A stretch of 64,000 nucleotides of DNA from positions 9,230 through 73,229 of IMG/VR virus record IMGVR_UViG_3300007770_001239; one strand, 5' to 3'. Numbering within the stretch: position 1 is the stretch's first letter; each line of letters starts with the position of its first letter. The translations under genes and the position numbers were made by a program. Source of the DNA: a virus (taxonomy: Duplodnaviria; Caudoviricetes). Positions 13,962-63,812 of this stretch are shown piece by piece. The notes beneath the pieces are model-generated. The model did not search any database, was not told where the DNA came from, and saw nothing but the letters and a program-made list of their open reading frames with translations.

Positions 13962-16900
13962 ATGGCAAGAGACTTTAGAGCAGACCAAATACGCGTAAAT
14001 AAGATAATCGCTTCTGGGTCGAGTTGGCCTTTGGCAACTGGGCGAGCGGTGGATACGAATGGTAACCCCACTCCAGCTGAGCAGTACCACCCCAACCTGG
14101 GATTGCTGTTCTACTCATCTAGCGCCGCGGCAGATTACTCAGGCGTGATTGAGGGATCAACGGACTTGATGAACCAATTTGGTAATGAGCCGTGGCTCGT
14201 TTTTTCTGGTTCTGCAAATAACACTGCCCTGACTCCCGTGGGGGATGGTAGCGCGGTTCTCTTTCTTGGAGATGTCATTATCAGTGGTACGCTGTTTGGA
14301 AAGCGACAGCTAATCCAGATTGATAGCGATGTCCCGAATGATTTTTATGTTCAAGGGAATACGCACCTTTCCGGTAACTTTTTTGCTGGTCCTACCTCAT
14401 ATGATAATGGCGGAACGCACACCCAGAATATGACAGTCTATCCGAACCAAAGGGGTGATAGAGGAGTCAAGATTAACTCTGATATGATCGTCTATACAAG
14501 GGGTAGCTCGGCAATGCCCCCTCGGATATCTTTCAGAACACTCACATGGGAAGACCGACTTACTCCAGCAACCGGGAATGAACATCCTGATGTCTTCTTT
14601 CACGTTTCAGGAACCGTTGGTGGTAGACTCGGAAACCAGCGCGGTATTGCTTTATTCGGTGGTGATCTTCATGTTTCCGGAAACTTCAGCGTTGATGGGT
14701 CAAATGACCTTGTTAAATTCCAAGAGGACATGATCCTCAATAATACCAGAAGTATGCCGCCGAACTTCGGTCATGATTATACCAACCCCGCGAACCTTCC
14801 GCCTCCTCTTTCTCGTATTAAAAAGCTGGATCGCTGGACTGTTGGTCAGTTTGCACCCAACGCTTCTAGCTGGTGGTCGGTCCTTCATAACTCATCTTCC
14901 ACCGCGGTGGGTGGCCATGGTGGGTGGAAGCTTAAGGTCAAAGGGGGCGCGCCCTGGAATGGGAATGAATTTACGGTTTCCGGGTCGGGTGATGTTGGAA
15001 TAGACCCAGGTAAAACTTTCTGGTTTGACTCTCGCGGTGCAACGAAAACGGGTATTAAGCATACATGGGCAGTTGGTTCGAACAAGCTGCAGATCTCCGG
15101 CAATATCCCTACGTCGTATGAATTCAATCATGGGGTTGTGACAGGATCAGGCGGGTTCCATCTGCCACAAGGAACATCAGCTGAAGGTAGATTTGGTCAA
15201 TCAATGGGAATTATGTTCCGCGGAGAGGGCTCAGGACTAGCAGGAAACGAAGCAGATATAGGAATATACTACAACGGAAGTGTCCTTACAAACCCAATCT
15301 TAGGCGGGACTACAAATACACTAGTCTTTACAGGAACAAATGCCGCCAGCGATGGGTGGATGGGAGTTGGTGGTAAATTACAATTAATTGCGCATGGTGG
15401 TCTTGGAAAATTCCAGGCTAGTACAAATATGTTTCTTGGGACCGATTCAGGAGATATTAATATCAACCCTGGCGGTGGGAATGTAGTATTCAAAGATGCA
15501 ACTGGTGCTGCCGTCGTTGATATAGACACAAGCAATGAACATCTACGACTACCTTCGACAGCAGATCCGGATGACTATTTCCAAATAGCGGTAGGTGCTG
15601 CAGGAACAACCACCATCAAGACTTTTGATGATGCTGCAACAGGTGCGCATCTTACAGTAAATATTGACGGTAATATTGCAATGAACGCCGCTGACGCATC
15701 AACGATCGGTCTCGGTAACAGCAACGCAGATACTGGAAAGATAACAATTGGTGGGTCTGTTGCGAATAGGTCAGAAATCGAGCTTAACGCGACGAACATT
15801 GATGTTAACGCCGGGTCGGGAGGAATCAATCTCGATGCAGCTGGACAATCTCATCTTACCACAACAGCAGGGACACTAACACTTGACGGTGCTGGTGGAG
15901 TGAACATTGTAGGTAACTCATCTGAAGTTGATATAACAACTACCGGTGGCGTTGATATTAATTCGGCGGCTTTTGATGTTGACGCTTCAGGCGCAATAGC
16001 TCTTGATTCTGATTCGACATTTAATATCGGGGCTACGAACTTTGTCGTTACAGCTGACGGTGGCGCCGGTGATGGCGCAATTAGTCTACAGACTACCGAC
16101 ACTACGAATGGTGTTAAAATATGTACCGTCGGCGGCGCTAGCGCAGTGCCGATCCAAATTGGTGGTGCCACTTCTACGGTCACGATTGGTAACGATTTAA
16201 GTGTCGGAACGAATGCTCATTCTGGAAGTGTGGATGTTTGGGGTGATCTCACTGTCCATGGCAGCTTTATTAAGGGTCATATTATCAGTGCTTCTGTCGG
16301 TGACCCATTACTGCTTCTTAACTCTGGTGCGCTTAGTAGTAATAGTGGCGGAGGTATTGCAATCGCATCTGGTTCCAACCAGACCAACATCGCTATGGTG
16401 TTCGGTAGGGATACCTCATTCGTAAATACTTTCTTGGTCGGTACTCTTGACGTTGGTGACGGTGATTCCCAATCAGAAACTAAGGTCGATCTTTCCGGGG
16501 CTACACCAATTCCCATTAGAACAACTGGTGTCCGGTTCCCGGCTGGAATGGCGCTAACTTCATCTCAGGTAACAGCAGGCCCATATCATCTATCGATGTC
16601 TAATCCGAGTAATAAGGGTGGCATTAGAATAAGAGCAGGAAACCCAGTAGTAGGAGTAAATCAAGGACCGGTTCAATTAAGCGGTTCGATGTTCAGTATT
16701 CAGCCTGATAGAAAAGTCTATTTATTAGAATCAGATCCAGGAACGCATACAGGCGCTTGGTTAAAAGGTAATTCAAGCTCCGGACTGATTACAGTAAGCG
16801 CTCCTGATGGTGTTACAATCCAAGGAGAGAAACCAGAATTACGTCTTGCTGACACTTATAAAATGCTCACATGCTTTGGTGGTGGAGCGGGTACAGCAAA

Positions 16901-19208
16901 TCTTCAACTTCAAAACGCCGGCGGAGATCTTCATCTAAGCTCTAGCGCGCCAGGAAATGCATGGACCCAGACAGTAATATCATCTTCGCATGATATAAAC
17001 ATTAAGGCTGGACTCGGTAGTTTGCTTGGTGTAAATACCGGTGGTACATTCAAAGTAACTGGTTCAACATACTCATTCCAGATGGCTGCTGGTCAGAAGA
17101 TGTATCTGGACGAGGGAACAGACGTCAGTCTTCAGCTTGACAGCAATCTATTAAAGATCAATCTTGGTGGCGCTTATACCGGACTAAGATTAGACGATGC
17201 ATCGCATATCTATTTTGATGGGTCTGCAAAGTACGTGCATGATTCCGGTCAAGTGTCAGATGGCGCACTAACGTATCAAGGAACTGACATCACTGTTAAT
17301 GCTTCAGCTGATGGTATCATTAACGCTGGGGGCGATCACCTCCAGCTTCGTAATAGAACATACGGAAAGGCTGTTGATTTACATGCAGGCTCAGCTTGGG
17401 TGTGGAGCGCTGCCGGTCAAAATAACAGATCAGGCGCGATATTAGTCGCATCATCATCTGCAACGGGTTTACCAGATAGAGGGTACCTCTCATTAGGTTC
17501 TCAGCGAGGTGAGTTAACGAACGAAGTATTCTACAACGGTAGACATACAGACGTTGCAATCTGGGTTTCAGGAACGATGGGTGGACGAGGAAATGCATTC
17601 CCATCCGTCACGGCTTTCGGCGGTGACGTCGTTATGTCAGGAAGCCTCTCGCTTGCAGAATATATCTATCTCGAAGACTCTACTGCTACGAACATCAGGT
17701 TTAGAAGCAATAGGATTGATCTAAGCGCAAATTCCGTACAGTTGATATCGCTACAGCCAACTGCAGGAACACCTTCAATAGCAATTAACGGCGACCAAGG
17801 TCAGTTTACTACTAGCATTGGCGGTCATGGTAGCCTTATTTTTGCAGCAGCTGGTCATGATAGCACAAATAGAGCCTTGTTCTTCTCCGATGGAACCGGG
17901 GAAGCAGCAGGACTTGACGTCAAATTCTACGTATCCGGTGCAGCCGGGTCCAGGAATAGTAGTACAAGAGGTACAACAGTGTTTGGCGGAGATGTTCACT
18001 GTTCGGGATCGTTAAGCACAGACACTTTGTCACTTGATAGCTTGACGCTTGATGCAACAAACTCGAAACTCGGATTCTATAACGCTAGCAATTTTTATAT
18101 CCAAAAGTCTTCCGCAGACCTGGTGTTTAAGGATTCAAACCTGGGCACTCAGAAAACGCTAACGCAGTTGGCAAGTCAGGCTATGACCGAAAATCTGTTC
18201 AGCGTTACACAGACGGCTGTCGGAGTACCGAACTACGGAATGACAACAGGATCATTCTCATTCGATACCGGTGTAGGGGGTCCATCTGCGAACAATGCAA
18301 GGGCAACAAACGCCATCGGTGGAGATGTTTACTTCTTCGTCAGCGGGACGATGGGAGCAAAAGCTCTACATCCAGCCGCTACTCCAAACAGAGGCGTGTC
18401 GGTGTTCGGTGGAGACATGCACGTATCGGGCGCGATCACGAGCGATAACACTGCATTCGGCGGGAGCTTAGATGATGCTTATGACATGCCAAACGGTGGC
18501 GGGACACCCTCGACTGGTGCAGGAAGATCAATAACAGTTAACGGTCCACCCGTCGCATTAGCAAACGGCGCGTCTCTCGTAACATCAGACTTGTTGGTCG
18601 TTTCCGGGGGAATAGCGATGGGCCAAATGCGTATGGTGCCTATGGCCGACACTGATAGCTTTTATACAAAAGCAGGTTTGTTCCTTACATCAAGCGCAGG
18701 GGAACTATCGTTCGGCGCGGGGGGAGCACCTTCGGCGGCGAAAACGGCATTTACCATTAACTCAAATGCAAATGTGATGATGCAACAAGCTTCAGGTGTT
18801 GGAAAGAAACTAGCATTCTCGCCGTCTGAAGCAGCGACGTATTTACAGTACACAAATGCAAACGGATCGAATCCGGGCGGTCGTCAATTGACTATGGCTA
18901 ACCAAACAACTGCCGGGATCATTCGACTCATTGCGGGTAACGACAATGGCGTAGGTAACCCAGGAACCGGAACAGGATTCGATGGAGTCGTTCATTGTAC
19001 AGGTAGCTTCCTCCCTGGTTTCGATCAAGAGTATAATCTTGGATCAGCAACAAAGCGCTGGGCGAATGTATACACCGGTGACCTCCATTTGAGAAATGAT
19101 CGTGGAAACTGGACTATTTATGAGGAACCAGACATGCTGGTCGTGGTGAATAACCTCACCGGAAAGAAATACAAAATGGGACTTACCCCCCTCGAGGATG
19201 AAGAATAA
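13962..19208 (+). CDS. Giant tail-fibre protein (1748 aa)
   Basis: Gly/Ser/Thr-rich with internal repeats; C-terminal YNLGSATKRWANVYTGDLHL..RGNWTIYEE..LVVVNNLTGKKYKM typical of fibre C-termini in marine tailed phages. Confidence 0.8.
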   Translation: MARDFRADQIRVNKIIASGSSWPLATGRAVDTNGNPTPAEQYHPNLGLLFYSSSAAADYSGVIEGSTDLMNQFGNEPWLVFSGSANNTALTPVGDGSAVLFLGDVIISGTLFGKRQLIQIDSDVPNDFYVQGNTHLSGNFFAGPTSYDNGGTHTQNMTVYPNQRGDRGVKINSDMIVYTRGSSAMPPRISFRTLTWEDRLTPATGNEHPDVFFHVSGTVGGRLGNQRGIALFGGDLHVSGNFSVDGSNDLVKFQEDMILNNTRSMPPNFGHDYTNPANLPPPLSRIKKLDRWTVGQFAPNASSWWSVLHNSSSTAVGGHGGWKLKVKGGAPWNGNEFTVSGSGDVGIDPGKTFWFDSRGATKTGIKHTWAVGSNKLQISGNIPTSYEFNHGVVTGSGGFHLPQGTSAEGRFGQSMGIMFRGEGSGLAGNEADIGIYYNGSVLTNPILGGTTNTLVFTGTNAASDGWMGVGGKLQLIAHGGLGKFQASTNMFLGTDSGDININPGGGNVVFKDATGAAVVDIDTSNEHLRLPSTADPDDYFQIAVGAAGTTTIKTFDDAATGAHLTVNIDGNIAMNAADASTIGLGNSNADTGKITIGGSVANRSEIELNATNIDVNAGSGGINLDAAGQSHLTTTAGTLTLDGAGGVNIVGNSSEVDITTTGGVDINSAAFDVDASGAIALDSDSTFNIGATNFVVTADGGAGDGAISLQTTDTTNGVKICTVGGASAVPIQIGGATSTVTIGNDLSVGTNAHSGSVDVWGDLTVHGSFIKGHIISASVGDPLLLLNSGALSSNSGGGIAIASGSNQTNIAMVFGRDTSFVNTFLVGTLDVGDGDSQSETKVDLSGATPIPIRTTGVRFPAGMALTSSQVTAGPYHLSMSNPSNKGGIRIRAGNPVVGVNQGPVQLSGSMFSIQPDRKVYLLESDPGTHTGAWLKGNSSSGLITVSAPDGVTIQGEKPELRLADTYKMLTCFGGGAGTANLQLQNAGGDLHLSSSAPGNAWTQTVISSSHDINIKAGLGSLLGVNTGGTFKVTGSTYSFQMAAGQKMYLDEGTDVSLQLDSNLLKINLGGAYTGLRLDDASHIYFDGSAKYVHDSGQVSDGALTYQGTDITVNASADGIINAGGDHLQLRNRTYGKAVDLHAGSAWVWSAAGQNNRSGAILVASSSATGLPDRGYLSLGSQRGELTNEVFYNGRHTDVAIWVSGTMGGRGNAFPSVTAFGGDVVMSGSLSLAEYIYLEDSTATNIRFRSNRIDLSANSVQLISLQPTAGTPSIAINGDQGQFTTSIGGHGSLIFAAAGHDSTNRALFFSDGTGEAAGLDVKFYVSGAAGSRNSSTRGTTVFGGDVHCSGSLSTDTLSLDSLTLDATNSKLGFYNASNFYIQKSSADLVFKDSNLGTQKTLTQLASQAMTENLFSVTQTAVGVPNYGMTTGSFSFDTGVGGPSANNARATNAIGGDVYFFVSGTMGAKALHPAATPNRGVSVFGGDMHVSGAITSDNTAFGGSLDDAYDMPNGGGTPSTGAGRSITVNGPPVALANGASLVTSDLLVVSGGIAMGQMRMVPMADTDSFYTKAGLFLTSSAGELSFGAGGAPSAAKTAFTINSNANVMMQQASGVGKKLAFSPSEAATYLQYTNANGSNPGGRQLTMANQTTAGIIRLIAGNDNGVGNPGTGTGFDGVVHCTGSFLPGFDQEYNLGSATKRWANVYTGDLHLRNDRGNWTIYEEPDMLVVVNNLTGKKYKMGLTPLEDEE
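14187..18437 (+). repeat. Dispersed protein repeat DVxFxVSG-x(8-16)-FGGDxxxSG (four clear copies, one degenerate)
   Basis: Copies near 14187 (degenerate), 14589, 17550, 17916 and 18324; diverged at DNA level. Confidence 0.75.
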
Positions 19209-22200
19209 TGTCAGTTTTCACTACAGTCTTATCAGCGTCTGATGGCGTTCAGGTTACCGGATCAGTTGACATCAAGGGTCAAGGACTAATAACAGCTGGA
19301 ATTATTTCTGGTTCAGCGATTGCAATTACAGGATCAGCTCATTTGGGGCATCCCGCTGGTCAATCAGCTCTAGTATTTAGTCGAATAGATTCTGATGTCC
19401 AGGCAGACGAGCAGCTTGGGTCGATCCAATTTGATGGTCGTGATTCGAATAGCGCCGGAGTCGGCGCAGAGATTCGCGGGGAAGCGGCTGACACATGGGC
19501 GAGCAATGATCGTCGAGCAACTGATATTAAATTCTTTACACAAGATAATACGTCCGGAGTTAACACATTGACGGGCGCAAGGCTGACCGTATCCTCATCG
19601 GGTGGGGTCGGAGCTGACATTCATATACATACTCCAGTGCTACAGGTTGGTACGGGAGGTGATGGAAACCAAGGAAAAACAGGTTCTGGAGTCCAAGCAA
19701 GAGTTTCCGCATGCACCACGGGTGATGAGGGTGATGCCGGTATAGAAATAGAGGCAGGTGGAACTACCAACACATCTGCTCTTACGTTTGCCAGGGACAA
19801 CAACACTTCCGAACGACAGGGGTGGTATGTCGACTGGAATGCAGCAGATGCCGATCGCGTAACGTATAGACAGTCGGATGCAACTGACCTCGGAGCATCA
19901 CCGATTGCGATTACTGACCCGGCCGAGAACACTGATGGTTCTGGAGGTTGGACAGTCAGAGTTGGGGGCGGGGGAGCATGGACGGCGCAGAATGCCGCTT
20001 GGGATAGGAAGCCCAGTCTTCTTGTGACTTCATCTTATTTTAGCAGGCAGTCTTTAATAACAATCCGAAACATGAATCAGAGCAATCCCTCGACAGGCCT
20101 TGCAGGGCACAAAGACGCTGTTCCGGGTATTGCATGGAATTATCTGCAAAAGAATGGCGCTCAAAATAATGGCATCTGGACGATGGGCATCGAACCATAT
20201 AACAAGTCACTGACCATTGGTTCACCATCCGGAGGCTTGAGCACGGGATATAACAGAAATACAACTGCGATGGTATTTGGTGAAGCCGGCGATAACACGA
20301 AGGTAGGAATTGGAGGCGACAGTGTCACGTGGGGACCAGGAACAGGTGGCAATACTAGATCACTAATCCCCAGTGCTACGCTTCATGTTGGTAATCAGAA
20401 TAACAATCCGTATTCATCGATGGATAAAACGTTAACTCAAACATCAACACTTCTTCTGGATAATTCTATTAACGGTAGCGGTGAAGTTCAAGCAACCCTA
20501 ACGTTCGATGTTTCCACGCAATCTGATATTGAATACCATTCTGCTCATATTGCATGTGTCAATGACGGTGCTGCAGCTGGACATACATCTTACTTATCAA
20601 CAGGTCTATATGACGGATCTGGCAACAAGGATTCAACGCGGTCGCGGATAAGGGTCGACAGCCAGGGTGGCATCATCGTATTAAGCGGTACAATGCCCGG
20701 TGCCGGCACAGGTTGGCCACGAAATGGAAATAGCTTTTATGATATAAGCGCAGGAGATGTACCATCTGGATCTCTATCACTGATTTCATTAATGGATGGA
20801 ACATATGGGAAGTCACAGCCAACCCTAAACTTTGTTAGCTGGACAGGTACCAATGGTAATCAGGGTGCCATTGCAGATGGGGCTGAATTAGGTAGAATAA
20901 CTTGGTGGAGTTCCGATAGCGGGAATTCAACAGACAATGATCGAACAGCCGCATTCATTCAGGCAGTTGCAACGCTAGCTCACGGTGGATCTAATGAATC
21001 TCCCGCTGAACTTCAATTCTTCACACGATGGAGTGGGGACTCCGAACCGCAGAAACAGATGGTGATTTCGCAGGGCGGTAATTTGCTACTCGGTCAAGGA
21101 TACATGCAACTCGGCGGTAATCAGATAAGGGATGCTGGTGATAATATTGTCATCAAGATGGACGGTTCAGGTAACCTGAATAAGGGACTGACAATCTCCC
21201 CCGCGGGTGCCGGCACACACGTATCTCTAAACATGGGGAACAGAGGTGCCACAAATGATACGATCATCAAACTGGGAAATGCTGGAAGAGTAGGTCAACT
21301 TGGGGTTGATTATTCTGATACATCTTTTAAGATCGGTTTAGACACAGGGTATGATGATTTTGGCGCAACTGCGATTACGATTGACTCATCTCTCAAAACT
21401 ACTCTCTCAGGAACGCTTCAAGTTGGTGGAAATATAATCAAAGCTTCTGACGGTGGCAACACCATTACTATGGACACCAGTGATAATGTCACTATTGCCG
21501 GCGACCTAACCGTCGGAGGTAATGATATTAAGGATTCCGGTAGTAATACATTCATCGGGTCTGACGGTACTGGAAATATTAACGATCTCGGTATAATCAC
21601 CGTCCCTACAACAACTTTCCGCAGCGCGACCACATCATTCCATCCAGAGATTCACCTTGAGTCGACCGACGCAACAACAGGTGATGCTGCAGAGATCCAC
21701 TTTAGCAGATACGACGACGCGGTGTTACAGGCTGGTGACAAGCTGGGTGAAATATATTTCAATGGTACCGAAACAAATGACAACACATATTTTCAAGCCG
21801 CAGTCATCGAAGGACAGGTAGGTACCGGCACATGGACGGATAGTTCATCCCAACCAGGAAGATTGTCATTCTACACAGTGGCAAACGGAGCTACATCACA
21901 GACTGAACGAATGACAATCGATTCCGACGGATCCGTCGAAATTACCGGTGACTTATTCGTTAATGACTACGCTCGAATCGATGCGCTGAGAGTTGGCACA
22001 ACCTCTACAGATCCTGGAGACGGTAATCTTTACGTCGAAGGAGAAGTTCAAACAGCACAGATATCGTATACAGACGGTGACGATGCTATAACAATCGCCG
22101 ATGGCGGATACACATCATATGCTGTGGGTAACACCAACGCCGGTGGCATACTGGTTAGCGACAATGCCAGCGCTGGTGATAACGAATGGTGTAAATTTGC

Positions 22201-23395
22201 ACAGGCAACACCAACGAGCAAATGCGCTGAAGGTACTTTTATTGTTAATCTGGGTGGGGCGATGACGTCCACCTACGTCAAATCTTCGACCTACATAATT
22301 TTCGCAAAGGTGGCCGATAATTCTGCTACTAACATGATTCTTACTGCAGAACCACTTTCTCGTGGTCTGGATGGGCCGACGTCAGCTGATCAACCATGGG
22401 ATCCAACAACCGACCTTGCATGTACTTGGACAAACAACACAGCAGAGCTTTGGATTAAGACTACGACAACAAATGTTGGATGTTGGGTCACTGCTCTTAG
22501 TGGACCGACTGTGACCGAAGAAAGAATAACCTCATGGACTATTCCAATTGGCGGAGATCAAGAAGGATGGCTTGCTTCCATCGACGATCTCGGTACCATA
22601 ACTTACGGTACATGGGCAGAAAAGATATTCTCGAAAGTTACAGCACCGACATTTGCAGGGGTGGGTGACATAACTCTTGATGCTGTTGGAGATATTATTC
22701 TTGCCGCTGATGGTGATCAGATCGTGATGACAGACGGGTCAACGACACGACTTACATTCAATGTCGATTCGACTCCGGAAATCGATTTCTTTGGTGCTGC
22801 CAGAATAGACTGTGATAGTACTCTAGAGCTTGAATGTCAAGGTAGCATGTTATTGGACATTAACAGTAACGGTCATTTTCGAGTATCTTTAACTAGCGCG
22901 ACGTCATACGGATTTGAGGTTCATGATGATGGACACTTCTACGCGCAGAGTTTAAGCAGTAATGGTGGTACAAATTACGCACGGTATGATACCGGCACTG
23001 GTGAAATATCGTATTGGACAAGTACAGAGAAAGTGAAAGAAAACATTAGGGATCTGCCGCTTGACTACGCACCATTATTAGCAATGCAACCAAGAATATT
23101 CGACTTCAAAGCCGCGCAAGGTGGGAATAAAAATGTTGTTGGATTTATCGCTGAAGAAATTGCCACAGCTCATCCAGGATCAGCTGCCCTGGGGCCTGAT
23201 TGGGACTATGATGAAGATGGGTATGTAAAACTAATCGATGCAGTACGTGAGGAAGACGGTGAGCCTACAAAAGCGAAAGTATTACTAAGCGAAAACAAGG
23301 TACCAATAGCATGGGATGATGCTGCAACGACAGCTTACCTTGTAAAAATCATACAAGACCTACATGCTAGAATACAGGATCTAGAAAACAGCTAA
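19208..23395 (+). CDS. Tail-fibre protein (1395 aa) with C-terminal peptidase-S74 intramolecular chaperone
   Basis: STEKVKENI...QPRIFDF...GFIAEE...LVKIIQDLHARIQDLE; three copies of an LGxIxFxG...PxxLxFxT module; GGNxIK repeats. Confidence 0.85.
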   Translation: MSVFTTVLSASDGVQVTGSVDIKGQGLITAGIISGSAIAITGSAHLGHPAGQSALVFSRIDSDVQADEQLGSIQFDGRDSNSAGVGAEIRGEAADTWASNDRRATDIKFFTQDNTSGVNTLTGARLTVSSSGGVGADIHIHTPVLQVGTGGDGNQGKTGSGVQARVSACTTGDEGDAGIEIEAGGTTNTSALTFARDNNTSERQGWYVDWNAADADRVTYRQSDATDLGASPIAITDPAENTDGSGGWTVRVGGGGAWTAQNAAWDRKPSLLVTSSYFSRQSLITIRNMNQSNPSTGLAGHKDAVPGIAWNYLQKNGAQNNGIWTMGIEPYNKSLTIGSPSGGLSTGYNRNTTAMVFGEAGDNTKVGIGGDSVTWGPGTGGNTRSLIPSATLHVGNQNNNPYSSMDKTLTQTSTLLLDNSINGSGEVQATLTFDVSTQSDIEYHSAHIACVNDGAAAGHTSYLSTGLYDGSGNKDSTRSRIRVDSQGGIIVLSGTMPGAGTGWPRNGNSFYDISAGDVPSGSLSLISLMDGTYGKSQPTLNFVSWTGTNGNQGAIADGAELGRITWWSSDSGNSTDNDRTAAFIQAVATLAHGGSNESPAELQFFTRWSGDSEPQKQMVISQGGNLLLGQGYMQLGGNQIRDAGDNIVIKMDGSGNLNKGLTISPAGAGTHVSLNMGNRGATNDTIIKLGNAGRVGQLGVDYSDTSFKIGLDTGYDDFGATAITIDSSLKTTLSGTLQVGGNIIKASDGGNTITMDTSDNVTIAGDLTVGGNDIKDSGSNTFIGSDGTGNINDLGIITVPTTTFRSATTSFHPEIHLESTDATTGDAAEIHFSRYDDAVLQAGDKLGEIYFNGTETNDNTYFQAAVIEGQVGTGTWTDSSSQPGRLSFYTVANGATSQTERMTIDSDGSVEITGDLFVNDYARIDALRVGTTSTDPGDGNLYVEGEVQTAQISYTDGDDAITIADGGYTSYAVGNTNAGGILVSDNASAGDNEWCKFAQATPTSKCAEGTFIVNLGGAMTSTYVKSSTYIIFAKVADNSATNMILTAEPLSRGLDGPTSADQPWDPTTDLACTWTNNTAELWIKTTTTNVGCWVTALSGPTVTEERITSWTIPIGGDQEGWLASIDDLGTITYGTWAEKIFSKVTAPTFAGVGDITLDAVGDIILAADGDQIVMTDGSTTRLTFNVDSTPEIDFFGAARIDCDSTLELECQGSMLLDINSNGHFRVSLTSATSYGFEVHDDGHFYAQSLSSNGGTNYARYDTGTGEISYWTSTEKVKENIRDLPLDYAPLLAMQPRIFDFKAAQGGNKNVVGFIAEEIATAHPGSAALGPDWDYDEDGYVKLIDAVREEDGEPTKAKVLLSENKVPIAWDDAATTAYLVKIIQDLHARIQDLENS

Positions 23396-23562: not shown

Positions 23563-23581
23563 TCATCAGCAGGAGTGTTTG

Positions 23582-25534: not shown

Positions 25535-25536
25535 AA

Positions 25537-30015: not shown

Positions 30016-30024
30016 GGAGTTTTT

Positions 30025-35622: not shown

Positions 35623-35633
35623 TGTGAGGTTAG

Positions 35634-36578: not shown

Positions 36579-36614
36579 GCTGTATATTTTGGTTACAATG
36601 ACTGAGGAGAGATT

Positions 36615-43141: not shown

Positions 43142-43142
43142 T

Positions 43143-45335: not shown

Positions 45336-45343
45336 GAAACGCC

Positions 45344-47917: not shown

Positions 47918-47930
47918 TGGGTGGTAGATC

Positions 47931-48428: not shown

Positions 48429-48430
48429 AA

Positions 48431-50275: not shown

Positions 50276-50279
50276 GTTT

Positions 50280-55396: not shown

Positions 55397-57324
55397 TGCC
55401 CACAACACAACGAGTACTAAGTGGTAGCAGAACGCAAGGATCGACAGCTACACCTACAGGGTCTATTATCTATTCATATCAGGGGATTTACGCCAAGTCA
55501 GATGCGTCTTATTTTGGAAGCTTATTACCTCGTATAGGCTCGGGAGATCGTACCAAGCTGTACAAGGGATCAAAGCCAGCTGCTGATACGCCATATGATG
55601 ATTCAATCTCGATGAATAATGATACTGCTGATATGCCAGGCGGCGAGGACGCTCCGCTGACTGTAAGAATCAGTTTTGATTTAGAGCGTATGACGATCGG
55701 TCAAGCACCGACAACGCAACAAGGCGATAAGTTCGTAGATATTAACGGATTTGATCCCGTAACATATCTTCATGACCCGGGCACGATCATGTGGCCTGTC
55801 AATCTATGGAATTTAGGCTCGCTTCCAGAGGAGACGTTTAATGGTGTTATTGAGCCTCTTGATATTAGAAGAGAAATTCTTGGATTATCAGGAAAATATT
55901 CGGGTCACAAAGTCCGAGGCGCGATTATGGGATCATTTGCTGATTCAGCCCGCGGCGGCCGCAAAATCCGTGATGTCAGGCGTTTGACCGCGAATCCACC
56001 TCAACCATTTTTTGATGGACCGGATCAGGTGAGGTCTCCACCACCACCACCCGGGGGTGAAGCCTGGACAACTGGATCGGTTCCAGTTGCAGCAAGGCTT
56101 GCTCAACCAACGCTATCGGCTAGCGCTTGGACTGATCCTACTTCAGTGCAACCGCTGCAGTCATATCAGGGTCTTTATGATGAGGTGGAGGCTCCCTTTA
56201 TTGATAGAACCTACTTCGACGTGGTCTATTCTAAATTAAGCGAGCATAATCCTCAAGGTTTTCGTGATATAGCCGCCGGTCAGGTAGGGGTTTATAATCT
56301 TACAGAAAATTGGTCTACGGATACCACTCCGCCGTTTTTGTACGTACGTAAAGACACTCTTGTGACCTGGCTACGAATGAAGGCAGATGTAAGCAGTACG
56401 GGAAATATGCCGAATAATGCATATGACCCTGTTACAGATTTTGAGGGAACGTTTGACTCCGCGAGTGAGCGACCTGGGTACGTCACCAACACCTACCCGG
56501 GCACGCCCAACGCGTACATAGCTCCCGCATGCGCAGACTTCGACGGTGTTGATGATATAATGAAAGTGGATGGGGGATCTGGAAATGATACTTGGAATGA
56601 CTTGATTGGTGGATCATACGCAGGTAACGACTTGAAACCATGGTCACTTTCAGTCTGGATTATGGTCGATAACTTCGATTCAGATTCAAATCATTTTATA
56701 TTCAATGCAAGCTCGGCCGATTACGCAAATTCCGCAGGGGTTTCGATCAACAGAACTACCAACAACGCCGACGAGTATGTTGGTTCAGTCAGCGCTTTTA
56801 GATACGGAGGCGGTAGCTGGGTTAGAAATGGTGCCACTTCAACGGCTGGTTTGATTACGGCTGGGAACTGGCATCATGTCGTTGTCGCCTATGCAGGAAC
56901 GTTTAACCCCTCCGGCGACGCCCCGGAACAGTTTAGCATTTATGTTGACGGTGTTTCATGCAAATCAGGCGAAACCGGTTACGATCAGGTTGGTGATGCT
57001 CCAACAGATTTTTCTGCAAATTATATTCATATCGGAGGTTCTCCCTCATTCGGTGGACGTGATTATTTTAACGGAAAAATATCAGATGTAGCAATATGGA
57101 GCAGGGCCTTGAACCAGAATGATGTTACAGCTTTATACAATATGGCGACATACGGACCAGACTCCGCAGACCAAAATTGGGTTATTGTAGAAGAAGATAT
57201 GACAGCTCGCTTACGAGTGATGAGTTCATCCATGAACGAATCTATAGACCCGCTTAACGAGCGATCAAACCATGGATTTTACTTTGGGAAGAAAGCTGGT
57301 TCAATTGTGTATGGTGACTGGTAA
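55396..57324 (+). CDS. Virion structural protein with a C-terminal LamG/ConA-like lectin domain
   Basis: DFDGVDD, WSLSVWI, WHHVVV, IYVDG, FNGKISDVAIWSRALNQNDV. Confidence 0.72.
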   Translation: MPTTQRVLSGSRTQGSTATPTGSIIYSYQGIYAKSDASYFGSLLPRIGSGDRTKLYKGSKPAADTPYDDSISMNNDTADMPGGEDAPLTVRISFDLERMTIGQAPTTQQGDKFVDINGFDPVTYLHDPGTIMWPVNLWNLGSLPEETFNGVIEPLDIRREILGLSGKYSGHKVRGAIMGSFADSARGGRKIRDVRRLTANPPQPFFDGPDQVRSPPPPPGGEAWTTGSVPVAARLAQPTLSASAWTDPTSVQPLQSYQGLYDEVEAPFIDRTYFDVVYSKLSEHNPQGFRDIAAGQVGVYNLTENWSTDTTPPFLYVRKDTLVTWLRMKADVSSTGNMPNNAYDPVTDFEGTFDSASERPGYVTNTYPGTPNAYIAPACADFDGVDDIMKVDGGSGNDTWNDLIGGSYAGNDLKPWSLSVWIMVDNFDSDSNHFIFNASSADYANSAGVSINRTTNNADEYVGSVSAFRYGGGSWVRNGATSTAGLITAGNWHHVVVAYAGTFNPSGDAPEQFSIYVDGVSCKSGETGYDQVGDAPTDFSANYIHIGGSPSFGGRDYFNGKISDVAIWSRALNQNDVTALYNMATYGPDSADQNWVIVEEDMTARLRVMSSSMNESIDPLNERSNHGFYFGKKAGSIVYGDW

Positions 57325-60300
57325 TGAAAGATAATAAAATATTCATACATGACCTTATAGATGGGGTTCCCACAACTTCGGGTAAGGGTGTAAAATACGT
57401 TGAGACTTTATCCTACGTTCGGTTTAACAAATTCTTACCTGGAACAATATCAAGGTACATAAACGATTTAGCAGATTCTGAGAACCCGTATACAGCAGTG
57501 AAGGGTATTAGCAATGAAGGTGGACGTTTTGACGAGACTGCAACCCAGATAGTCGGAGTCTCTGGTGATGTCTTTGCAGGTCGCGCTTTTACGGATATGA
57601 ATCTTGCTGGCTCTGCTATCAAGTCCGAGTCGCGGTATACTGATCGTGTTCTATCTTTGGGATCGGCATATCTGGGTACGAGTATCTTTATTGCTAAAGA
57701 AAACGTGACTAATCTGGATCCAAATACAAACGGTGATCTTACATTCATGGTTAGGATGATGCTTGATTCGTCTCGCACCACCGGCGAGCCTGCAGTCACA
57801 CAAAACAAAGCTGTCTTCACCATCGGCGACCCTGTGTCAGGAGTAGCAGCATTTAACATTACTGTACCGTCAGCCCAAACAATAAGAGCAAATCTAGTTG
57901 GTGATAGTGGGACGATGGTGGTATCGTTAACGAATGTTGAGCTCGGTGTGTGGCACACTGTGATGTTTACGATCCAGAATGCCACGTCGCCCAACCGGTC
58001 TATGACAGCTCGCTATTACAAGGTCGGTGATCCAGCTACCAGGGTCTGCCTCGGGTGCCCGCCGGGGGTGCCGAATGCGGGCATCTCGTATGGCTCAGGT
58101 AATCCAGGTACATTAAAAAGTTTAGATAACCCAACGCTATACGTCGGTTACGGCGAATTAGCGGGCGGGGTGAATACCGCATTTAGTATAGCGGACTTTG
58201 TTTCAGGAGTTCATCTTGCTGAGTTCGCCGTTTTTCGCGGAAAATTGGAAGAGGAGACGATGGGACTAATCGCCCAGTCTCACTTAAAAGTAAATCAGTT
58301 TAGTTCTGGAATTAATAGCCGTCCAGTAAAGAAAGTTCAACAGTTCTTTGATTCGATGACGTCGTACCCATCGAATCGACGTAACACCGGCGAGAGATTA
58401 ACGAATAAGAATGTTGCAGCATTTGACTCCACAAAGGAGCCGACATTCGGAAAGTGGGTAAGCGGCTCAAGCCAGCCCGACAATCCACGGATGATGCTAT
58501 ATCCAGAGATGATACCAGCCGATTTATATTCTGGATCCGGCGGATTTTGGTACAACGGTTCGTATAGTCCATATTTTAAGTACGATGGCGTCCGCCCCGG
58601 CATCCGGGGTAATCCCCAGCAAGTAGCTGGTGAACCTATCTCTACGTCTCCAACGTTCGGATATAGAGACTTTACTCGTACTCCTTACGAGAATCGATTG
58701 GTCACCACCGGTGCGATTGTCCCGGGAGCGATGAGTCTGGAAACAGAGCTTCTCAATACAGTCACGCATGAAAATGTTGGTTCGAATTATTACACGGCCT
58801 TGGGCGGCCGCATAAAACCCTTTGATGACAACCAAGGGGGAGATGCCCTCGTTATCAATAAGCGGGTATCGGACTGGCCTGAATTTGACCAGAAGCTTGG
58901 TGATGTCGTCGCGATTGAGATCCCAATCCCCACGACAGCAGACTGCAAGATGGGCGTTGATGAAACCCAGGGTCGTATCGCATCGATGGCATATTATAAT
59001 TTCACGAATGCTAGATGGGATCGAATTGGCTTTATGCCGGGTATATCTGGCTCAAATATGGATGCCGGCAAATCGAACCCCCACGTATCCTTTACGGGCG
59101 AGAGCCCGGTACAGAGTTGGAAGGCCGGCGGTGACCCCGCGATGACGCTGATTGACTCGGATGGTAAATTCGCCGGTATGACGAATTGGGCAGAAGATGT
59201 CCGTTCGTTCCTTGTTAATTCATGCTCAATAGGATTTTCAGGTACGTCTGGTTTTTCAATCCTTGAAGATGAGTTCGAAATTGCATTGGGCGAGTTGCCC
59301 CTTAGGGGAAGACCGACTTCAACGTACGGTTTCCCACACACTGATCAGTACGTTGCAACAGACGATCAAGGGATCAATATATCCGACTATATCGATGCAC
59401 CTTTTCTCCTCCAGAGGATTGCGGTTGAGATTGATGGTGAAGTTGAAGAGTCTGGGCCAAGTTCATTAGCAACAATGATCAGGTCTCGAGGAAAATGGAA
59501 GGCCATGGCGGGCCCGGGCATCACCACCGCGGAATGTCCCGGCGATGGTATGCCCGAATGGAAGATGCTCACGTGCGGGACCCCCGGTGTTGAGCAGTTT
59601 TTTGCGGCAGGTGGGGCTGATGGCTCCTCCACCGCGTCGCAAGTCAGGCTCGGAAAAGGATTATTCCATAATTATCCATCTTTTGTCGGTGGAAGCTCTC
59701 GTCCTGCCACCGCTGACCTCACTACCGCTGCCACCGACAACTTCGCCACTATCGGTTACGCTATAACGAATCAAGCTAATTCTGGCAACACACCATCGAA
59801 GAACACAAACGTTTATTATGGAAAACAAGAACCAAGCGACTCCGACGGTCTTAGCATACCTGCAAGAATATTCATACCACAAATAGCGTTTAGGGATACT
59901 CCTCAACAACGTCGCCCCACTGCTCCAGACCGCGAAACACCCGACAACGGAGGGCCTCTACAGAATTCAATTAAATTATTATTTGGTGGAATTTCTGGTC
60001 ATGTAACAGGGTCATATGGGGGTGGCCACGCCTATGATATCGCTGGGTGGAAGGCTACTTGGGTGACAGGGATTGATCTATATAATTCTGCTGGTGTCGC
60101 ATTAACCGACGATTCTCGTGTCGGTGGCGTGCCATTCTGGAGATGTGATACATTCTTTTTGCTGCGACAATCTCCGGGAAGAGAGCGATTCGTTGGGGGT
60201 GACGCAGAAATATATTCTACAAATATTGCCAATAATTTCTCTGATCTTCCGATGTCTGGAGGGTACGTGATGATCGACGCATCCACCTCCATGCCGGGGG

Positions 60301-63300
60301 CAGGCACAGCACTTGAAGCGTGGGGTTACTCCGCGAACCCCTCAATCTCCCCCGTCTTTCAGCGGAACCCGAACCCACCCCGCGTCGTCGCCCTCGAAGA
60401 AACCGTATCTGAATTTCGCGAGTCTACCCGGACTACGAAAAGAGAGTTAATAACGTACGCTCAACTCACTCATTACGGGTACGCTGCTGCTGAGCAAATG
60501 CTCACCGCGAGCATCTTCCCATCTCGGTATTATTATGACGCCGCCCCCGGTCCCAGTAGCTGGACTTCTGCTGGCGGTGTGCTTCAGGCTGGAAACCCTG
60601 CTATGTTATCATCATCTGCCGTGTATACTCAGGCGATGAAGTGGTCCTCGATGGGATATGGCACTACGAACCGGTCCTACAGCCCGACTCCCGGCATCGC
60701 CGAGACGTCAACGGGCGGTCCGCTGTATCGAAAGGAAGACGAGGTCGGTGACATTCATGCGGGTTCCGGAAACGGTTTGCTGTGGAAATTTGTGGAATTT
60801 GCCCAGATCCACACAGAGCGGACGAAAAGGATGGTTAATGCCACCGCGATATCGGCGTCCCATTACGGGGGGGAGCAGGCGAATTTCGCTCCATTTGCGA
60901 GGGATTGTGAAGAGCTCACGGAAAAATGGACCGCGGTGTCATGGGACTGGAGATATCAGTGTGGGACAAACTTCAACAACGGTGGCGATTGTCTGTGGGC
61001 CAATGGAGGTAGTGAAAGCAGTTATACTGTAGCTGGCGCCGATAGTGCTGGCAATGCCAACATCAACACGTTTGCTTACGCTGTAAATTCTGCAAAGCGG
61101 TCATCCGCATCCACAACGTATCCCAAGTACGCGATGATCGATCACGCAACGCAACGCTGGCACTTTACTGCGATTCAAAGAGCAGGATTTAGCGTTGTGA
61201 CATCACCCTGCTTACCAACGGTTGAGGGTAATGACGATCATTTCGAAAGGTTTGGGTCTTTTACAAGGGGTGGTCTTTTGGCCACAGAGGGTGGAGTCGG
61301 CGGCTGGGGGAATTGTGGGTCTACAGTCGCCCAGAATATCAATAACTGGTCCCGACCCATTTCATCCTCAAACGCTCCGGTAAAATTTAGCAATTGGCTG
61401 GAGGAAGGTTTGGGACGAGATGAGAATGTTTACGTATCTGCCGACTTCACACACAAGCGGACCGACATATACGGGGGTAAAGCTGGGTTCACAATATTAA
61501 CCTGTAGTTTACCACACGTGCCCTCTGATTTGACTGGACGCTTCAATGGCGACCACTGTATTCGTGGTACATTCTTTGAGAAACGCTTGTTAAATGCTGC
61601 AAGTTTTAGAATAGAGGCCCCTGTAAGACAAAGTCCTGTTATCATTTCTGACAGTTCTCATCTTTTTTGCCATACCACAGCCCCGGGATACTTGCTTCAT
61701 GAAGCCTCCGCTAACTACATCGCCCAGAACGTCGCTGCTCACAGCTCCCTCGATAATGGCTCCGGCTGGCACTTCTACACCACACCTCCTGACGGCATAA
61801 GATTCTCCCTATACCGTAAATGGTGGCGCTGTATTCCACGAACGAAAGCGTGGATAGGAGATGTTGGTTCTGCTAACTCAACTGCTGGAGTAGGGGCCCC
61901 ATCATCGCTTACGTCAGGGCGCAGGTTTTTTGCCTCAATGGTATCTGATAAACCACTCTATACTGGATCTTTACCATCAGACCTCCCGGGTCCAGCAGCC
62001 TTTTTGAATCCATATGCTAGCGGTCTCTATCCGAAGCCGGATGCCGCGGCAAACGGCACCGGAAAAGGTAAGGGCTTCGGTTTCAGGGATCGAGAAATGG
62101 GCGGTCCATCCGGACTGCTTTCATCGTCAGTGGGTTCCGCGGCTGAGAGGAAGTCTATGTATCTATTACAACCAGGCGACAAGCTTACTTTTGGTTTCCA
62201 GCCGTCGCTGCACGGTAGTAATCGCGGTAATAATACAATTCCCTCAAATCCGAATGTGAATCCTTATGGGCCCTGGCGTGATGGTGTGTGGCAACGAAAT
62301 GAGATTCTCACTGGAGCAGCGAATTACAACTATGACGCTGAGACTGTACTTTCTCGCACAGATTCTCGAGGGCAGCCTGGTGGCGTTCTTAGGAACAGAA
62401 GCAACGTTAATTTGGAATCTTTATATGAGCCCAGACAATCGTTCACCATTAAATCCAGCCAGAGCGCAAAGCTTATTCTGTATGGAACGTATGTACAGAA
62501 CAATAGATATGCTCCCTCTTCTACTAGTCAGGAATTAAGAACTAATGCTATACATGAGATGATTTCCGGCGGTCCAATTGTTGATCAATTTCAGACAGAC
62601 AACGCTTCTGCATACAGCGGAAGCTATATAGCAGAACTGGTCACTGGAAGCATATTCCACAACACAAATGACTATGCGTCGATGGTTTCTCGCCGATTTA
62701 CCTCAGGCATTGCTGGCCAAGCCGGCTCACCGGGTGTATGGGCGAACCCTGGTTTACGAACGAGCGGTTCATTCCAGCGTTTTGTTAGAATTCCTGATAC
62801 GTCTGAAGTATTTTTTGATAGCCTTCCACCCAATCCCGCTCAAATGTTCGATCTCGACTTGGCACTTTCGGGGGGATTAAATATTAGCTCCTATGGTCGG
62901 GTAGGCTTTAGTATTATAGGAGCCCAATCCAATGCGAGCAGCACCTACGGAAGCAACATCCGCGGTAACGCTAGGTGGTTACCATCATTTCCGTTTGAAG
63001 CTCGGTATAAGTCAATTAAAAGATCGACCCAATGGCCTAAACCGGGGTTTGGTACAACTGGATCAGCAAGCGACTTGTTTATGATGTCTTCTTCATATGG
63101 TATGGGGCGAGGTAAGAGTCCCTTCACCGCGGTGGAGACCCCTGCCTCCGACCGCCAATCGTTAAGTCCGGCGCAGTATAATTTTGCGGGGACCGGCACT
63201 CACGAACGTGTCGACCCGCGATGGGTCTTGGGGATGCAAGTAGCGGAACCAGCGAATGGCGATCCCACAATATGGTCAAGATATGGCAAGCGAGGACACG

Positions 63301-63812
63301 GCGGCACCTCCACAATCTGGTCTTCAGATGGTACTGCAATCGTGATGGCGGGATTATTCGGTTTTTGGAAGACTCCAACCGGCCGATTCCCAACACTAGT
63401 CTCGAATTGCCCTGATGGGTGGGAGGCGATTGTTGGCACCGTCGCGCCTGCCAGCTTTGCCATCTGTTCACATCCGTCTGGGTGGAAATACGGATTAATG
63501 AATTTCCGTCGTACTGCAACTTCCTCCGTGTATAGATACGATCGATATGGCCAGTTTAGAGATCAGCTTGAGCAGAGAAAATATGGAAGATTCTATGAAT
63601 ACGGTGATGGTATCAATACGGTAGGCCTGCAAGAAGCTGCTGTTACGTGCATCTTCGTAGATTCAGAGGGGGATCCTGTTACAGATCCAGTAACAACGTC
63701 ATGTAATAACCTAAGTCAAGAAATGACATCTTCTGTCCCCTATAAAGAGGGGGAAACATCCAGACCGCCAATACTTACTACTGAACCGATAACGATTAGT
63801 TCTCTAATTTAA
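57324..63812 (+). CDS. Giant virion structural protein (2162 aa) with an N-terminal LamG-like domain
   Basis: LTFMVRM, WHTVMF, HLAEFAVF in the N-terminal part; Gly/Ser/Pro-rich; translationally coupled in the baseplate operon. Confidence 0.65.
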   Translation: MKDNKIFIHDLIDGVPTTSGKGVKYVETLSYVRFNKFLPGTISRYINDLADSENPYTAVKGISNEGGRFDETATQIVGVSGDVFAGRAFTDMNLAGSAIKSESRYTDRVLSLGSAYLGTSIFIAKENVTNLDPNTNGDLTFMVRMMLDSSRTTGEPAVTQNKAVFTIGDPVSGVAAFNITVPSAQTIRANLVGDSGTMVVSLTNVELGVWHTVMFTIQNATSPNRSMTARYYKVGDPATRVCLGCPPGVPNAGISYGSGNPGTLKSLDNPTLYVGYGELAGGVNTAFSIADFVSGVHLAEFAVFRGKLEEETMGLIAQSHLKVNQFSSGINSRPVKKVQQFFDSMTSYPSNRRNTGERLTNKNVAAFDSTKEPTFGKWVSGSSQPDNPRMMLYPEMIPADLYSGSGGFWYNGSYSPYFKYDGVRPGIRGNPQQVAGEPISTSPTFGYRDFTRTPYENRLVTTGAIVPGAMSLETELLNTVTHENVGSNYYTALGGRIKPFDDNQGGDALVINKRVSDWPEFDQKLGDVVAIEIPIPTTADCKMGVDETQGRIASMAYYNFTNARWDRIGFMPGISGSNMDAGKSNPHVSFTGESPVQSWKAGGDPAMTLIDSDGKFAGMTNWAEDVRSFLVNSCSIGFSGTSGFSILEDEFEIALGELPLRGRPTSTYGFPHTDQYVATDDQGINISDYIDAPFLLQRIAVEIDGEVEESGPSSLATMIRSRGKWKAMAGPGITTAECPGDGMPEWKMLTCGTPGVEQFFAAGGADGSSTASQVRLGKGLFHNYPSFVGGSSRPATADLTTAATDNFATIGYAITNQANSGNTPSKNTNVYYGKQEPSDSDGLSIPARIFIPQIAFRDTPQQRRPTAPDRETPDNGGPLQNSIKLLFGGISGHVTGSYGGGHAYDIAGWKATWVTGIDLYNSAGVALTDDSRVGGVPFWRCDTFFLLRQSPGRERFVGGDAEIYSTNIANNFSDLPMSGGYVMIDASTSMPGAGTALEAWGYSANPSISPVFQRNPNPPRVVALEETVSEFRESTRTTKRELITYAQLTHYGYAAAEQMLTASIFPSRYYYDAAPGPSSWTSAGGVLQAGNPAMLSSSAVYTQAMKWSSMGYGTTNRSYSPTPGIAETSTGGPLYRKEDEVGDIHAGSGNGLLWKFVEFAQIHTERTKRMVNATAISASHYGGEQANFAPFARDCEELTEKWTAVSWDWRYQCGTNFNNGGDCLWANGGSESSYTVAGADSAGNANINTFAYAVNSAKRSSASTTYPKYAMIDHATQRWHFTAIQRAGFSVVTSPCLPTVEGNDDHFERFGSFTRGGLLATEGGVGGWGNCGSTVAQNINNWSRPISSSNAPVKFSNWLEEGLGRDENVYVSADFTHKRTDIYGGKAGFTILTCSLPHVPSDLTGRFNGDHCIRGTFFEKRLLNAASFRIEAPVRQSPVIISDSSHLFCHTTAPGYLLHEASANYIAQNVAAHSSLDNGSGWHFYTTPPDGIRFSLYRKWWRCIPRTKAWIGDVGSANSTAGVGAPSSLTSGRRFFASMVSDKPLYTGSLPSDLPGPAAFLNPYASGLYPKPDAAANGTGKGKGFGFRDREMGGPSGLLSSSVGSAAERKSMYLLQPGDKLTFGFQPSLHGSNRGNNTIPSNPNVNPYGPWRDGVWQRNEILTGAANYNYDAETVLSRTDSRGQPGGVLRNRSNVNLESLYEPRQSFTIKSSQSAKLILYGTYVQNNRYAPSSTSQELRTNAIHEMISGGPIVDQFQTDNASAYSGSYIAELVTGSIFHNTNDYASMVSRRFTSGIAGQAGSPGVWANPGLRTSGSFQRFVRIPDTSEVFFDSLPPNPAQMFDLDLALSGGLNISSYGRVGFSIIGAQSNASSTYGSNIRGNARWLPSFPFEARYKSIKRSTQWPKPGFGTTGSASDLFMMSSSYGMGRGKSPFTAVETPASDRQSLSPAQYNFAGTGTHERVDPRWVLGMQVAEPANGDPTIWSRYGKRGHGGTSTIWSSDGTAIVMAGLFGFWKTPTGRFPTLVSNCPDGWEAIVGTVAPASFAICSHPSGWKYGLMNFRRTATSSVYRYDRYGQFRDQLEQRKYGRFYEYGDGINTVGLQEAAVTCIFVDSEGDPVTDPVTTSCNNLSQEMTSSVPYKEGETSRPPILTTEPITISSLI

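Follow-up and report, generated by a model that had tools for sequence, protein, structure and literature searches.

A tripeptide motif of fibre and outer baseplate proteins in an uncultured marine jumbo phage, a candidate acceptor for O-glycosylation

Introduction

What reads, or requires, a short amino acid word that recurs throughout the predicted outer tail proteins of a phage and is nearly absent from its enzymes? The question is raised by a 64,000-nucleotide stretch of DNA (the window; positions 9,230 to 73,229 of IMG/VR record IMGVR_UViG_3300007770_001239) from an uncultured marine jumbo phage. The word, a hydrophobic residue followed by [S/T]-[G/A/S]-S, is dense in fibre and outer baseplate proteins encoded between window positions 13962 and 63812, a region that also holds a large set of glycosyltransferase (GT) genes, and a sequence-only reading of the window had proposed it as the sequon of a phage-encoded O-glycosylation system.

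Our leading reading, held tentatively, is that the motif is the acceptor of a cytoplasmic, phage-encoded protein O-glycosylation system; that it is an unmodified surface or turn motif is a possibility that ranks close behind. As judged by comparison of homologous sequences, hydrophobic-[S/T]-[G/A/S]-S marks predicted exposed hydroxyl pairs beside or inside the beta-strands of fibres and outer baseplate; glycosylation of these hydroxyls is plausible, as is the choice made below of the enzymes that would read the motif. Several observations favour O-glycosylation. The same word, with a hydrophobic residue before it, occurs in proteins without detectable similarity and in mixed secondary-structure settings; it is confined to outer virion proteins, is dispensable for their fold, and has a correlated state across the proteins of one phage; and it adjoins a large soluble GT machinery, including an accessory island whose size partly tracks the motif.

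Results

Enrichment of the motif in outer virion proteins

Non-overlapping occurrences of [ST][GAS]S were counted in each protein and compared with 1000 composition-preserving shuffles of that protein. The genes concerned, with their lengths in amino acids (aa) and motif counts, are as follows; every sizeable gene of the window is on the + strand.

13962..19208, + strand: fibre-like protein, 1748 aa; 21 sites against 10.1 expected (z 3.8); contains a recurring GGDV-x-x-SGS-L unit
19208..23395, + strand: tail fibre protein, 1395 aa, phrog_9942 (tail fibre); 10 sites against 7.5 expected over the whole fibre (z 1.0, not significant)
23579..25534, + strand: core glycosyltransferase, 651 aa; GT-B-like N-terminal domain fused to a GT2 domain
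25537..40956, + strand: accessory glycan island of ~19 genes, annotated with Pfam
40960..41832, + strand: PD-(D/E)XK nuclease-fold protein that forms the island's conserved right border
41888..44321, + strand: tandem GT4 glycosyltransferases of 417 and 392 aa (genes 41888 and 43143), E-x7-E/D intact in both
44610 and 45344: two small open reading frames (ORFs) without assignment, between the GT4 pair and 45712
45712, + strand: 616-aa protein without family assignment, labelled gp5-like in the sequence-only reading; 3 sites
47931..50275, + strand: gp25-like (165 aa, 47931) and gp6-like (614 aa, 48431) inner baseplate wedge proteins; 1 site each
50280..51836, + strand: 518-aa outer baseplate protein, a chain of beta-sandwich domains; 14 sites against 2.7 expected (z 7.6)
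51836..55396, + strand: 1186-aa outer baseplate protein with a LamG-like domain; 20 sites against 4.1 expected (z 8.5)
55396..57324, + strand: 642-aa LamG-domain protein; 6 sites against 2.6 expected (z 2.3, marginal)
57324..63812, + strand: 2162-aa distal tail protein; 19 sites against 10.9 expected (z 2.7)

The hand counts in the sequence-only reading (14, 20, 21 and 19 for 50280, 51836, 13962 and 57324) were exact, and enrichment over composition-preserving shuffles, which had been set as a test beforehand, holds in all four proteins. Half of the ten sites in the 19208 fibre lie within its first 140 residues, the five that had been reported. The low counts claimed for enzymes and core proteins were borne out for the helicase-like, YeaH, SpoVR, PrkA and PhoH proteins (0-1 sites each) and for the gp25-like and gp6-like wedge proteins, which show no excess and serve as an internal negative control, but the gp5-like protein has three sites, not one or two. 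Across the window, enzymes, all GTs and gp6/gp25-like proteins have 0-2 sites each, matching expectation, and phage T4 gp5-gp12, gp34-gp37, wac, gp18 and gp23 show no excess (z -1.0 to 0.7).

The excess persists when residues are shuffled only within 15, 30 or 60 residues, and within blocks of 6-8 residues, and local richness in Ser and Gly is thus not its cause. An unbiased tripeptide scan returned SGS as the top-enriched word (28 against 8.3 expected), with TAS and TGS close behind; no D-S/T word, as would be expected for the Bacteroidota O-glycosylation sequon D-[S/T]-[A/I/L/V/M/T], was among the top words. The word has a direction: in 50280 and 51836 together there are six TAS and no SAT, and the third residue is Ser in 35 cases and Thr in 4. 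The 518-aa family contains 1137 T[GAS]S words as against 475 of the form S[GAS]T, and the ratio is 2.4-2.7:1 in the 518-aa and 1186-aa families, with no such bias in the gp6-like family. Position -1 is hydrophobic at 65-71% of sites against a background of 28-34%, in agreement with the earlier remark that most sites follow such a residue. The middle residue in 50280 is Ala or Ser, not Gly, in 9 of the 14 sites.

The codons used at the motif are mixed, so the signal lies at the protein level and a DNA-level cause is ruled out. A shared repeat domain as the source of the motif is likewise ruled out, since BLAST detected no similarity among the window's motif-rich proteins. LamG-like domains are the sole family names that Pfam gives to the four large proteins 50280, 51836, 55396 and 57324; the 13962 protein has no Pfam, PHROG or PDB sequence match, and PDB sequence searches with 51836 and 57324 also returned none.

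Relatives, conservation and structural setting of the sites

The window has no DNA or protein match in the INPHARED collection of sequenced phages. Relatives, given G (genome) and L (locus) handles below, were found solely in IMG/VR and metagenome assemblies, many of them marine and with contigs of up to ~300 kb; their portal and terminase are of T4 type, and the 518-aa family alone comprises at least 1883 clusters at 50% identity (E up to 0.001). In the relatives G001 (109 kb) and G003 (183 kb) the enriched proteins are only a subset of the large beta-rich proteins without family match (two have weak LamG-like matches), and the portal, terminase, SbcCD-like and gp6-like proteins and the GTs are not enriched.

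Homologs at 36-80% identity retain the excess. In the 518-aa family, 110 full-length cluster representatives have a mean of 8.8 sites against 2.5 expected (median z 4.7), and 13 of the 14 sites of 50280 are at positions common to at least half of 120 homologs; in the 1186-aa family, 16 columns carry the motif in at least half of the homologs. Columns in which a site has been lost often hold the near-variants SGA, SGT, SGN or SAT.

An AlphaFold2 model of the 518-aa protein (predicted local distance difference test, pLDDT, 80; predicted template modelling score, pTM, 0.79) is a chain of beta-sandwich domains that resemble macroglobulin, FN3 and Ig domains and one carbohydrate-binding module; the structural relatives of the whole chain are uncharacterised phage proteins. 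Its 14 sites fall in varied settings: four in strands, five beginning at the last residue of a strand, one starting a strand, one in a helix and three in loops. The model of the 1186-aa protein is poor (pLDDT 50), and residues 160-320 and 690-830 alone were used; in these confident parts three sites begin a strand, another three come after one, one lies within a strand, and two form two-residue hairpin turns. Site 301 of 51836 (L-S-G-S-I-N-K-L-R-I) is the phi-x-G-x-phi-D strand of LamG domains, in which the present lineage has Ser at both x positions. The broader LamG/ConA-like signature phi-x-G-x-phi-D-(E)-phi-R-phi (PF13385) accounts for the structural Gly at this site only, and explains neither the Ser at both flanks nor the other ~90 sites.

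Motif-poor relatives

A few homologs of the 518-aa protein lack the excess, and their contigs were compared with the rest. At L038 (GC content 0.33), L041 (0.43), L125 (0.49) and L126 (0.36) the 518-like protein, the 1186-like protein and their downstream neighbours are all at expectation. In a set of 15 phages, z-scores of the 518-like protein correlate with those of the 1186-like protein (Spearman 0.70, p 0.004, uncorrected for phylogeny), and on the gp6-like tree the motif-poor state appears at three, four or more places. Drift in GC content or composition was rejected as the cause, the poor phages having GC contents of 0.33-0.49 and the rich ones 0.30-0.54. An alternative sequon in the motif-poor phages was rejected as well: an unbiased scan of three- and four-letter words found no convincing word, and the matches at L041/L043 are words of fibre repeats. 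Searches for further motif-poor loci with PD-(D/E)XK queries yielded one locus from one query and none from another.

At the conserved sites the residues found in motif-poor homologs are instead D, E, K, N, R, Q, P or hydrophobic ones (S-F-D-D-S-E-E for S-F-SGS-S-E, for example, or Q-V-K-A-M-L for V-V-SAS-I), and in the 1186-aa family the middle Gly or Ala is often retained while the flanks are altered. The exchange of Ser/Thr flanks for charged or polar residues indicates that the flanking hydroxyls are probably exposed and are dispensable for the fold, which agrees with the exposure that the sequence-only reading had assumed; the small middle residue is partly structural.

Glycosyltransferases and the sugar island

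The gene order runs from two fibre-like proteins through the sugar genes (23579-40956), the PD-(D/E)XK gene and the GT4 pair to the baseplate block, which places the island between the modules for fibre and baseplate, in the same orientation, a synteny kept in relatives. A Pfam scan of 48 + strand ORFs of at least 100 aa identified ten genes with GT domains, namely GT2 (23579, 25537, 28781, 30338, 32074 and 33617), GT6 (28029) and GT4 (34525, 41888 and 43143), and two weaker GT-B-like genes (26309 and 31209). The GT island described earlier is real, and the "13 GT-like genes" of the window come to ten plus two, of which 23579 holds two domains.

The other island genes include one for a methyltransferase and four for SDR epimerase/dehydratases, GDP-mannose 4,6-dehydratase among them. 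Beside the SDR genes, at 29515-30345 and 35634-36578, are genes for a SIS isomerase, a GHMP kinase and a HAD phosphatase, the last (106 aa) a weak match. The SIS, HAD, GHMP and SDR set is consistent with a predicted GDP-heptose or 6-deoxy-heptose pathway; Pfam recognised no nucleotidyltransferase in the island, and no genes for nonulosonic-acid synthesis and CMP activation in the window. A Kyte-Doolittle scan of the island proteins found no convincing membrane-spanning segment (the sole borderline case is the GT2 protein 33617, at residue 15, score 1.66), and hence no flippase, polymerase or initiating phosphoglycosyl transferase; the hallmarks of a locus for polysaccharide linked to undecaprenyl phosphate (initiating transferase, flippase or ABC exporter, polymerase) were not found among these proteins.

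The core set comprises four GT domains, those of the 23579 GT-B/GT2 fusion and of the GT4 pair 41888/43143. The 23579 protein has the signatures GGAE-x-TTEAL and LP-x-GGDTCPRMVIEA in its GT-B-like part and DGGSTDGT and Q-M-D-x-D-E in its GT2 part, followed by a conserved C-terminal part; these parts are separate ORFs at L040 and L043. A GT of this type is present in all relatives in which that stretch is covered, and E-x7-E/D is intact in both GT4s. The GT4 pair is syntenic with the baseplate genes in all relatives with upstream DNA covered, except at L126, where no GT4 pair or PD-(D/E)XK gene was found within 10 kb upstream of the 518-like gene.

The stretch between the core GTs is hypervariable in sugar type. 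At the island position G003 (136956-152849, loci L027/L028) encodes NeuB, a cytidylyltransferase, a class IV aminotransferase, a UDP-sugar dehydrogenase, methyltransferases, three GT4-like proteins and one GT2, a predicted nonulosonic-acid pathway in place of the heptose/6-deoxy type of the window. Other loci have combinations of UGDH, GMD, heptose or NeuB genes, with NeuB matches in four loci besides G003.

Motif density and island size

Island size was taken as the span between the 23579 homolog and the PD-(D/E)XK gene, and motif density partly tracks it. The window has an island of 15.4 kb, and G001 and G003 have islands of 17.0 and 16.0 kb, as compared with 0-3 kb in three motif-poor relatives: L040 has one extra GT2 only, L043 nothing besides the split 23579-type genes, and L127 four small genes (3.0 kb) including one SDR and one cupin. 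Intermediate sizes occur at L065 (5.1 kb), L091 (~7.0 kb, z 3.6) and L085 (~8.5 kb, z 4.1). At ~25 other loci, where the 518-like protein was scored and ~9 kb upstream was covered, the 23579 homolog was not reached, and the island is at least ~9 kb or the gene order differs.

Fibre repeats at L043

At L043 three fibre proteins are motif-rich (z 4.1-5.2). One of them (L043:2230-6387, a Logan contig of ERR4869800) is a 1385-aa protein of about ten tandem units with faint bactofilin-like Pfam matches, the unit reading D-L-x-V-x-G-x-L-T-V-T-G-S-T-I-L-S-G-N-V, and is probably a beta-solenoid shaft. A motif at a fixed repeat position and with a middle Gly is thus seen in the L043 fibre and partly in the 13962 protein; it is not seen in 50280, where settings are mixed.

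Discussion

Proposed O-glycosylation and the findings that weigh against it

If the motif is an O-glycosylation acceptor, the four conserved soluble GT domains would initiate or assemble a core sugar, late in infection, on tail proteins that are folding or already folded, and the hypervariable island would supply and attach lineage-specific outer sugars, of the heptose/6-deoxy type in the window and of nonulosonic-acid or uronic-acid types in relatives, the outcome being a glycan coat over the exposed tail periphery. Since motif-rich fibres persist in a phage with the core set alone, the core GTs would be likelier readers of the motif than the accessory island. Extended to the whole group, the proposal is that a marine jumbo phage lineage may coat its fibres and outer baseplate with O-glycans at a short motif by means of four core GTs and an O-antigen-like island, a possibility that we raise with some reserve.

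A number of findings weigh against glycosylation. Most of the excess is at positionally conserved sites, the remainder after masking being just 1.6-1.9 times expectation, and conserved structural residues would give the same positional pattern; the middle residue, moreover, is restricted to small ones. Motif-poor phages at L038/L040, L041/L043 and L125/L127 keep the GT4 pair with its catalytic motifs intact, which disposes of the idea that they have lost this pair as the motif reader, and the 23579-type GT is also kept at L040, L043 and L127. At L043 the accessory island is nearly missing and the baseplate is motif-poor, yet the fibres are motif-rich, so that motif and island are not strictly coupled, and in those fibres TGS stands at a fixed place in tandem units every ~47-52 aa, beside SGN/AGN corners, as a structural corner motif of a solenoid-like repeat would. 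The neighbouring L060/L063/L072 clade has a low excess (z 1.8-3.1) yet an island of at least 6-9 kb. L128 and L011 are mixed cases with a poor 518-like and a rich 1186-like protein, and because L041/L043 and L125/L127 are sister lineages the informative island losses number about two. Finally, of the known protein O-GT families, neither a Maf nor a GtfA/B-like match was found.

The sequence-only reading had asked whether motif density tracks the GT island, and it does so to the extent that relatives with islands of 0-3 kb have no baseplate excess; the fibres of L043 and the L060/L063/L072 clade depart from it. Its larger proposal, sequon-directed O-glycosylation, came through three computational tests aimed at refuting it, and has against it the core GTs of motif-poor relatives, the L043 repeats and the positional conservation of the sites.

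Alternative explanations

The best-surviving alternative, which we consider a real possibility if a slightly lesser one than glycosylation, is that the word goes unmodified and is a structural or surface feature peculiar to this lineage, its small residue occupying a beta-arc, a hairpin or a bulge, and that the GT island is unrelated to it. The Ser/Thr residues on either side would then serve to cap strand ends or to hydrate them, both in the solenoid-like repeats of fibres and in beta-sandwich domains. This would account for the TGS fixed beside corners in the L043 repeats, the recurring GGDV-x-x-SGS-L unit of 13962, the conserved positions of 13 of the 14 sites of 50280 and of 16 in the 1186-aa family, the middle Gly/Ala retained even in motif-poor homologs and the near-variants SGA, SGT, SGN and SAT sharing motif columns; one site is a canonical LamG strand, several are modelled as two-residue hairpin turns, and the L043 fibres are rich despite nearly no accessory island. 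It fits less well with homologs that fold without the Ser/Thr flanks, with T4 counterparts that have no excess, or with the varied secondary-structure settings and the Ala or Ser in the middle of 9 of the 14 sites of 50280. Neutral drift of turn residues, furthermore, does not predict the joint gain and loss of the word in unrelated proteins of one phage.

That joint behaviour suggests a shared trans-acting or environmental cause, and this need not be a GT acting on protein: the motif might be read by a chaperone or assembly factor, be phosphorylated or acylated, or form hydrogen bonds with host polysaccharide, with phage DNA or the host envelope as the target of the GTs. Both DNA and host serotype are known targets of phage GTs (PMC12619734), and core GTs persist where the baseplate motif is absent. 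We nevertheless consider such a reader improbable, as no protein is linked to the motif as a candidate reader, genes for DNA hypermodification were not seen in the window, no surface-polysaccharide export machinery was found among the island proteins, and the island is co-oriented with, and lies between, the fibre and baseplate modules. A statistical artefact of proteins rich in Ser, Thr and Gly, to which the unenriched 19208 and marginal 55396 proteins might point, is largely refuted and very improbable, because the excess is directional, withstands shuffling over whole proteins, over 15-60 residues and in blocks of 6-8, is maintained across hundreds of homologs and is missing from the Ser-rich homologs of motif-poor phages.

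Comparison with known glycosylation systems

In the mycobacteriophages Che8, Corndog and Myrna virion glycosylation is reported at the C termini of capsid and tail-tube proteins, where one or two GTs carry it out (summarised in PMC12363180 and PMC12619734). As in those phages, GT genes are found here with structural genes, and phage-encoded GTs would act in the cytoplasm on proteins of the phage's own virion. The sites differ in being internal, dispersed, tripeptide-defined and on fibres and outer baseplate, and no C-terminal capsid or tube acceptor was encountered in the window, where capsid and tube genes were not recognised; ~12 GTs with sugar-nucleotide pathways are present, and glycosylation, demonstrated there, is here a proposal from genes and motif.

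Cytoplasmic O-glycosylation of flagellin has no strict sequon; hydrophobic residues precede the sites, and S-x-S pairs are modified, such as S159/S161 and S167/S169 of A. caviae FlaB (PMC9290775). In Aeromonas and Campylobacter Maf-type enzymes O-glycosylate flagellin with nonulosonic acids (PMC9290775, PMC11339370). Shared with that system would be soluble GTs and surface Ser/Thr residues of a polymerising structural protein, exposure being deduced here from the substitutions in homologs, and the relative G003 holds NeuB, CMP-transferase and aminotransferase genes at the same island position. Maf itself (MptE-like, PF01973) has no match in G001-G005 or in the 48 Pfam-scanned ORFs of the window, whose island is of heptose/6-deoxy type and not nonulosonic, and the middle residue is small here and hydrophobic there.

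With GtfA/GtfB, the GT4 pair that glycosylates serine-rich-repeat adhesins and in which GtfB is a non-catalytic partner, the phage would share a tandem GT4-fold pair and an acceptor Ser in words like S-A-S. Both phage GT4s, in contrast, keep the catalytic E-x7-E/D, and the acceptors would be folded beta-proteins and not long disordered repeats; a PDB sequence search of the GT4s revealed no relationship to GtfA/GtfB, the best match being the chlorovirus GT B736L (E 6e-8). Autotransporter heptosyltransferases (TibC/Aah, BAHT) act on beta-helix passenger domains and carry out cytoplasmic O-heptosylation of Ser on beta-solenoid repeats, and the SIS isomerase, GHMP kinase and HAD phosphatase of the window island are consistent with a nucleotide-heptose pathway. 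No BAHT-type enzyme turned up in a general Pfam scan of window proteins, which included no BAHT-specific test.

Implications

If the motif is indeed a glycosylation acceptor, it would give phages their first O-glycosylation sequon defined by sequence, and virion glycosylation, known from a few actinobacteriophages, would take in a very large marine jumbo phage group as well. A readable sequon would make glycosylated virion surfaces predictable from sequence alone, and glyco-engineering would gain soluble O-glycosyltransferases for proteins, together with a short acceptor tag. That a glycan locus flanked by conserved transferases is hypervariable would point to diversifying selection acting on the surface of the phage, with host recognition, defence evasion, particle stability and grazing resistance as possible targets. 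If the motif is only structural, it is a curiosity of one protein lineage.

Other observations

The phage may belong to the 'moraphages', an aquatic group that reaches 307 kb and has a core genome with four GT orthogroups (PMC12619734), which the four core GT domains of the present lineage recall. Among the most motif-rich proteins of G001 are an 863-aa (21 sites, z 10) and a 447-aa protein (z 3.6) encoded at 10576-14522 (L031), away from the baseplate block and adjoining the SbcCD, terminase and portal genes; they have a weak LamG-like match only, and may be neck or head fibres. Within the 1186-aa gene (51836-55396), the SGS/SSS sites at residues 190-260 are common to the distant relatives L011, L013 and L015 and not to the close relative L002, which hints at mosaic exchange within the gene.

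A shared late-promoter word tying the island to the structural genes was sought and rejected, TATAAATA and ATACTTAATT not being enriched and ATATTTAGTA having two exact copies only, at 13274-13283 and 47908-47917, with no enrichment of mismatched copies. Each of the two precedes a start codon by 13-14 nt, in one case that of 13296 and in the other that of the gp25-like gene, and ATATTTAGTA could be part of a late promoter or translation signal. Lastly, we note that G003 (IMGVR_UViG_3300035698_026482) has at 84093-92087 (L025:4093-12087) ORFs for the portal and the large terminase, of 1685 and 964 aa respectively, that are far longer than those of G001, and that HNH-endonuclease-type matches inside both ORFs suggest putative intein or homing-endonuclease insertions.

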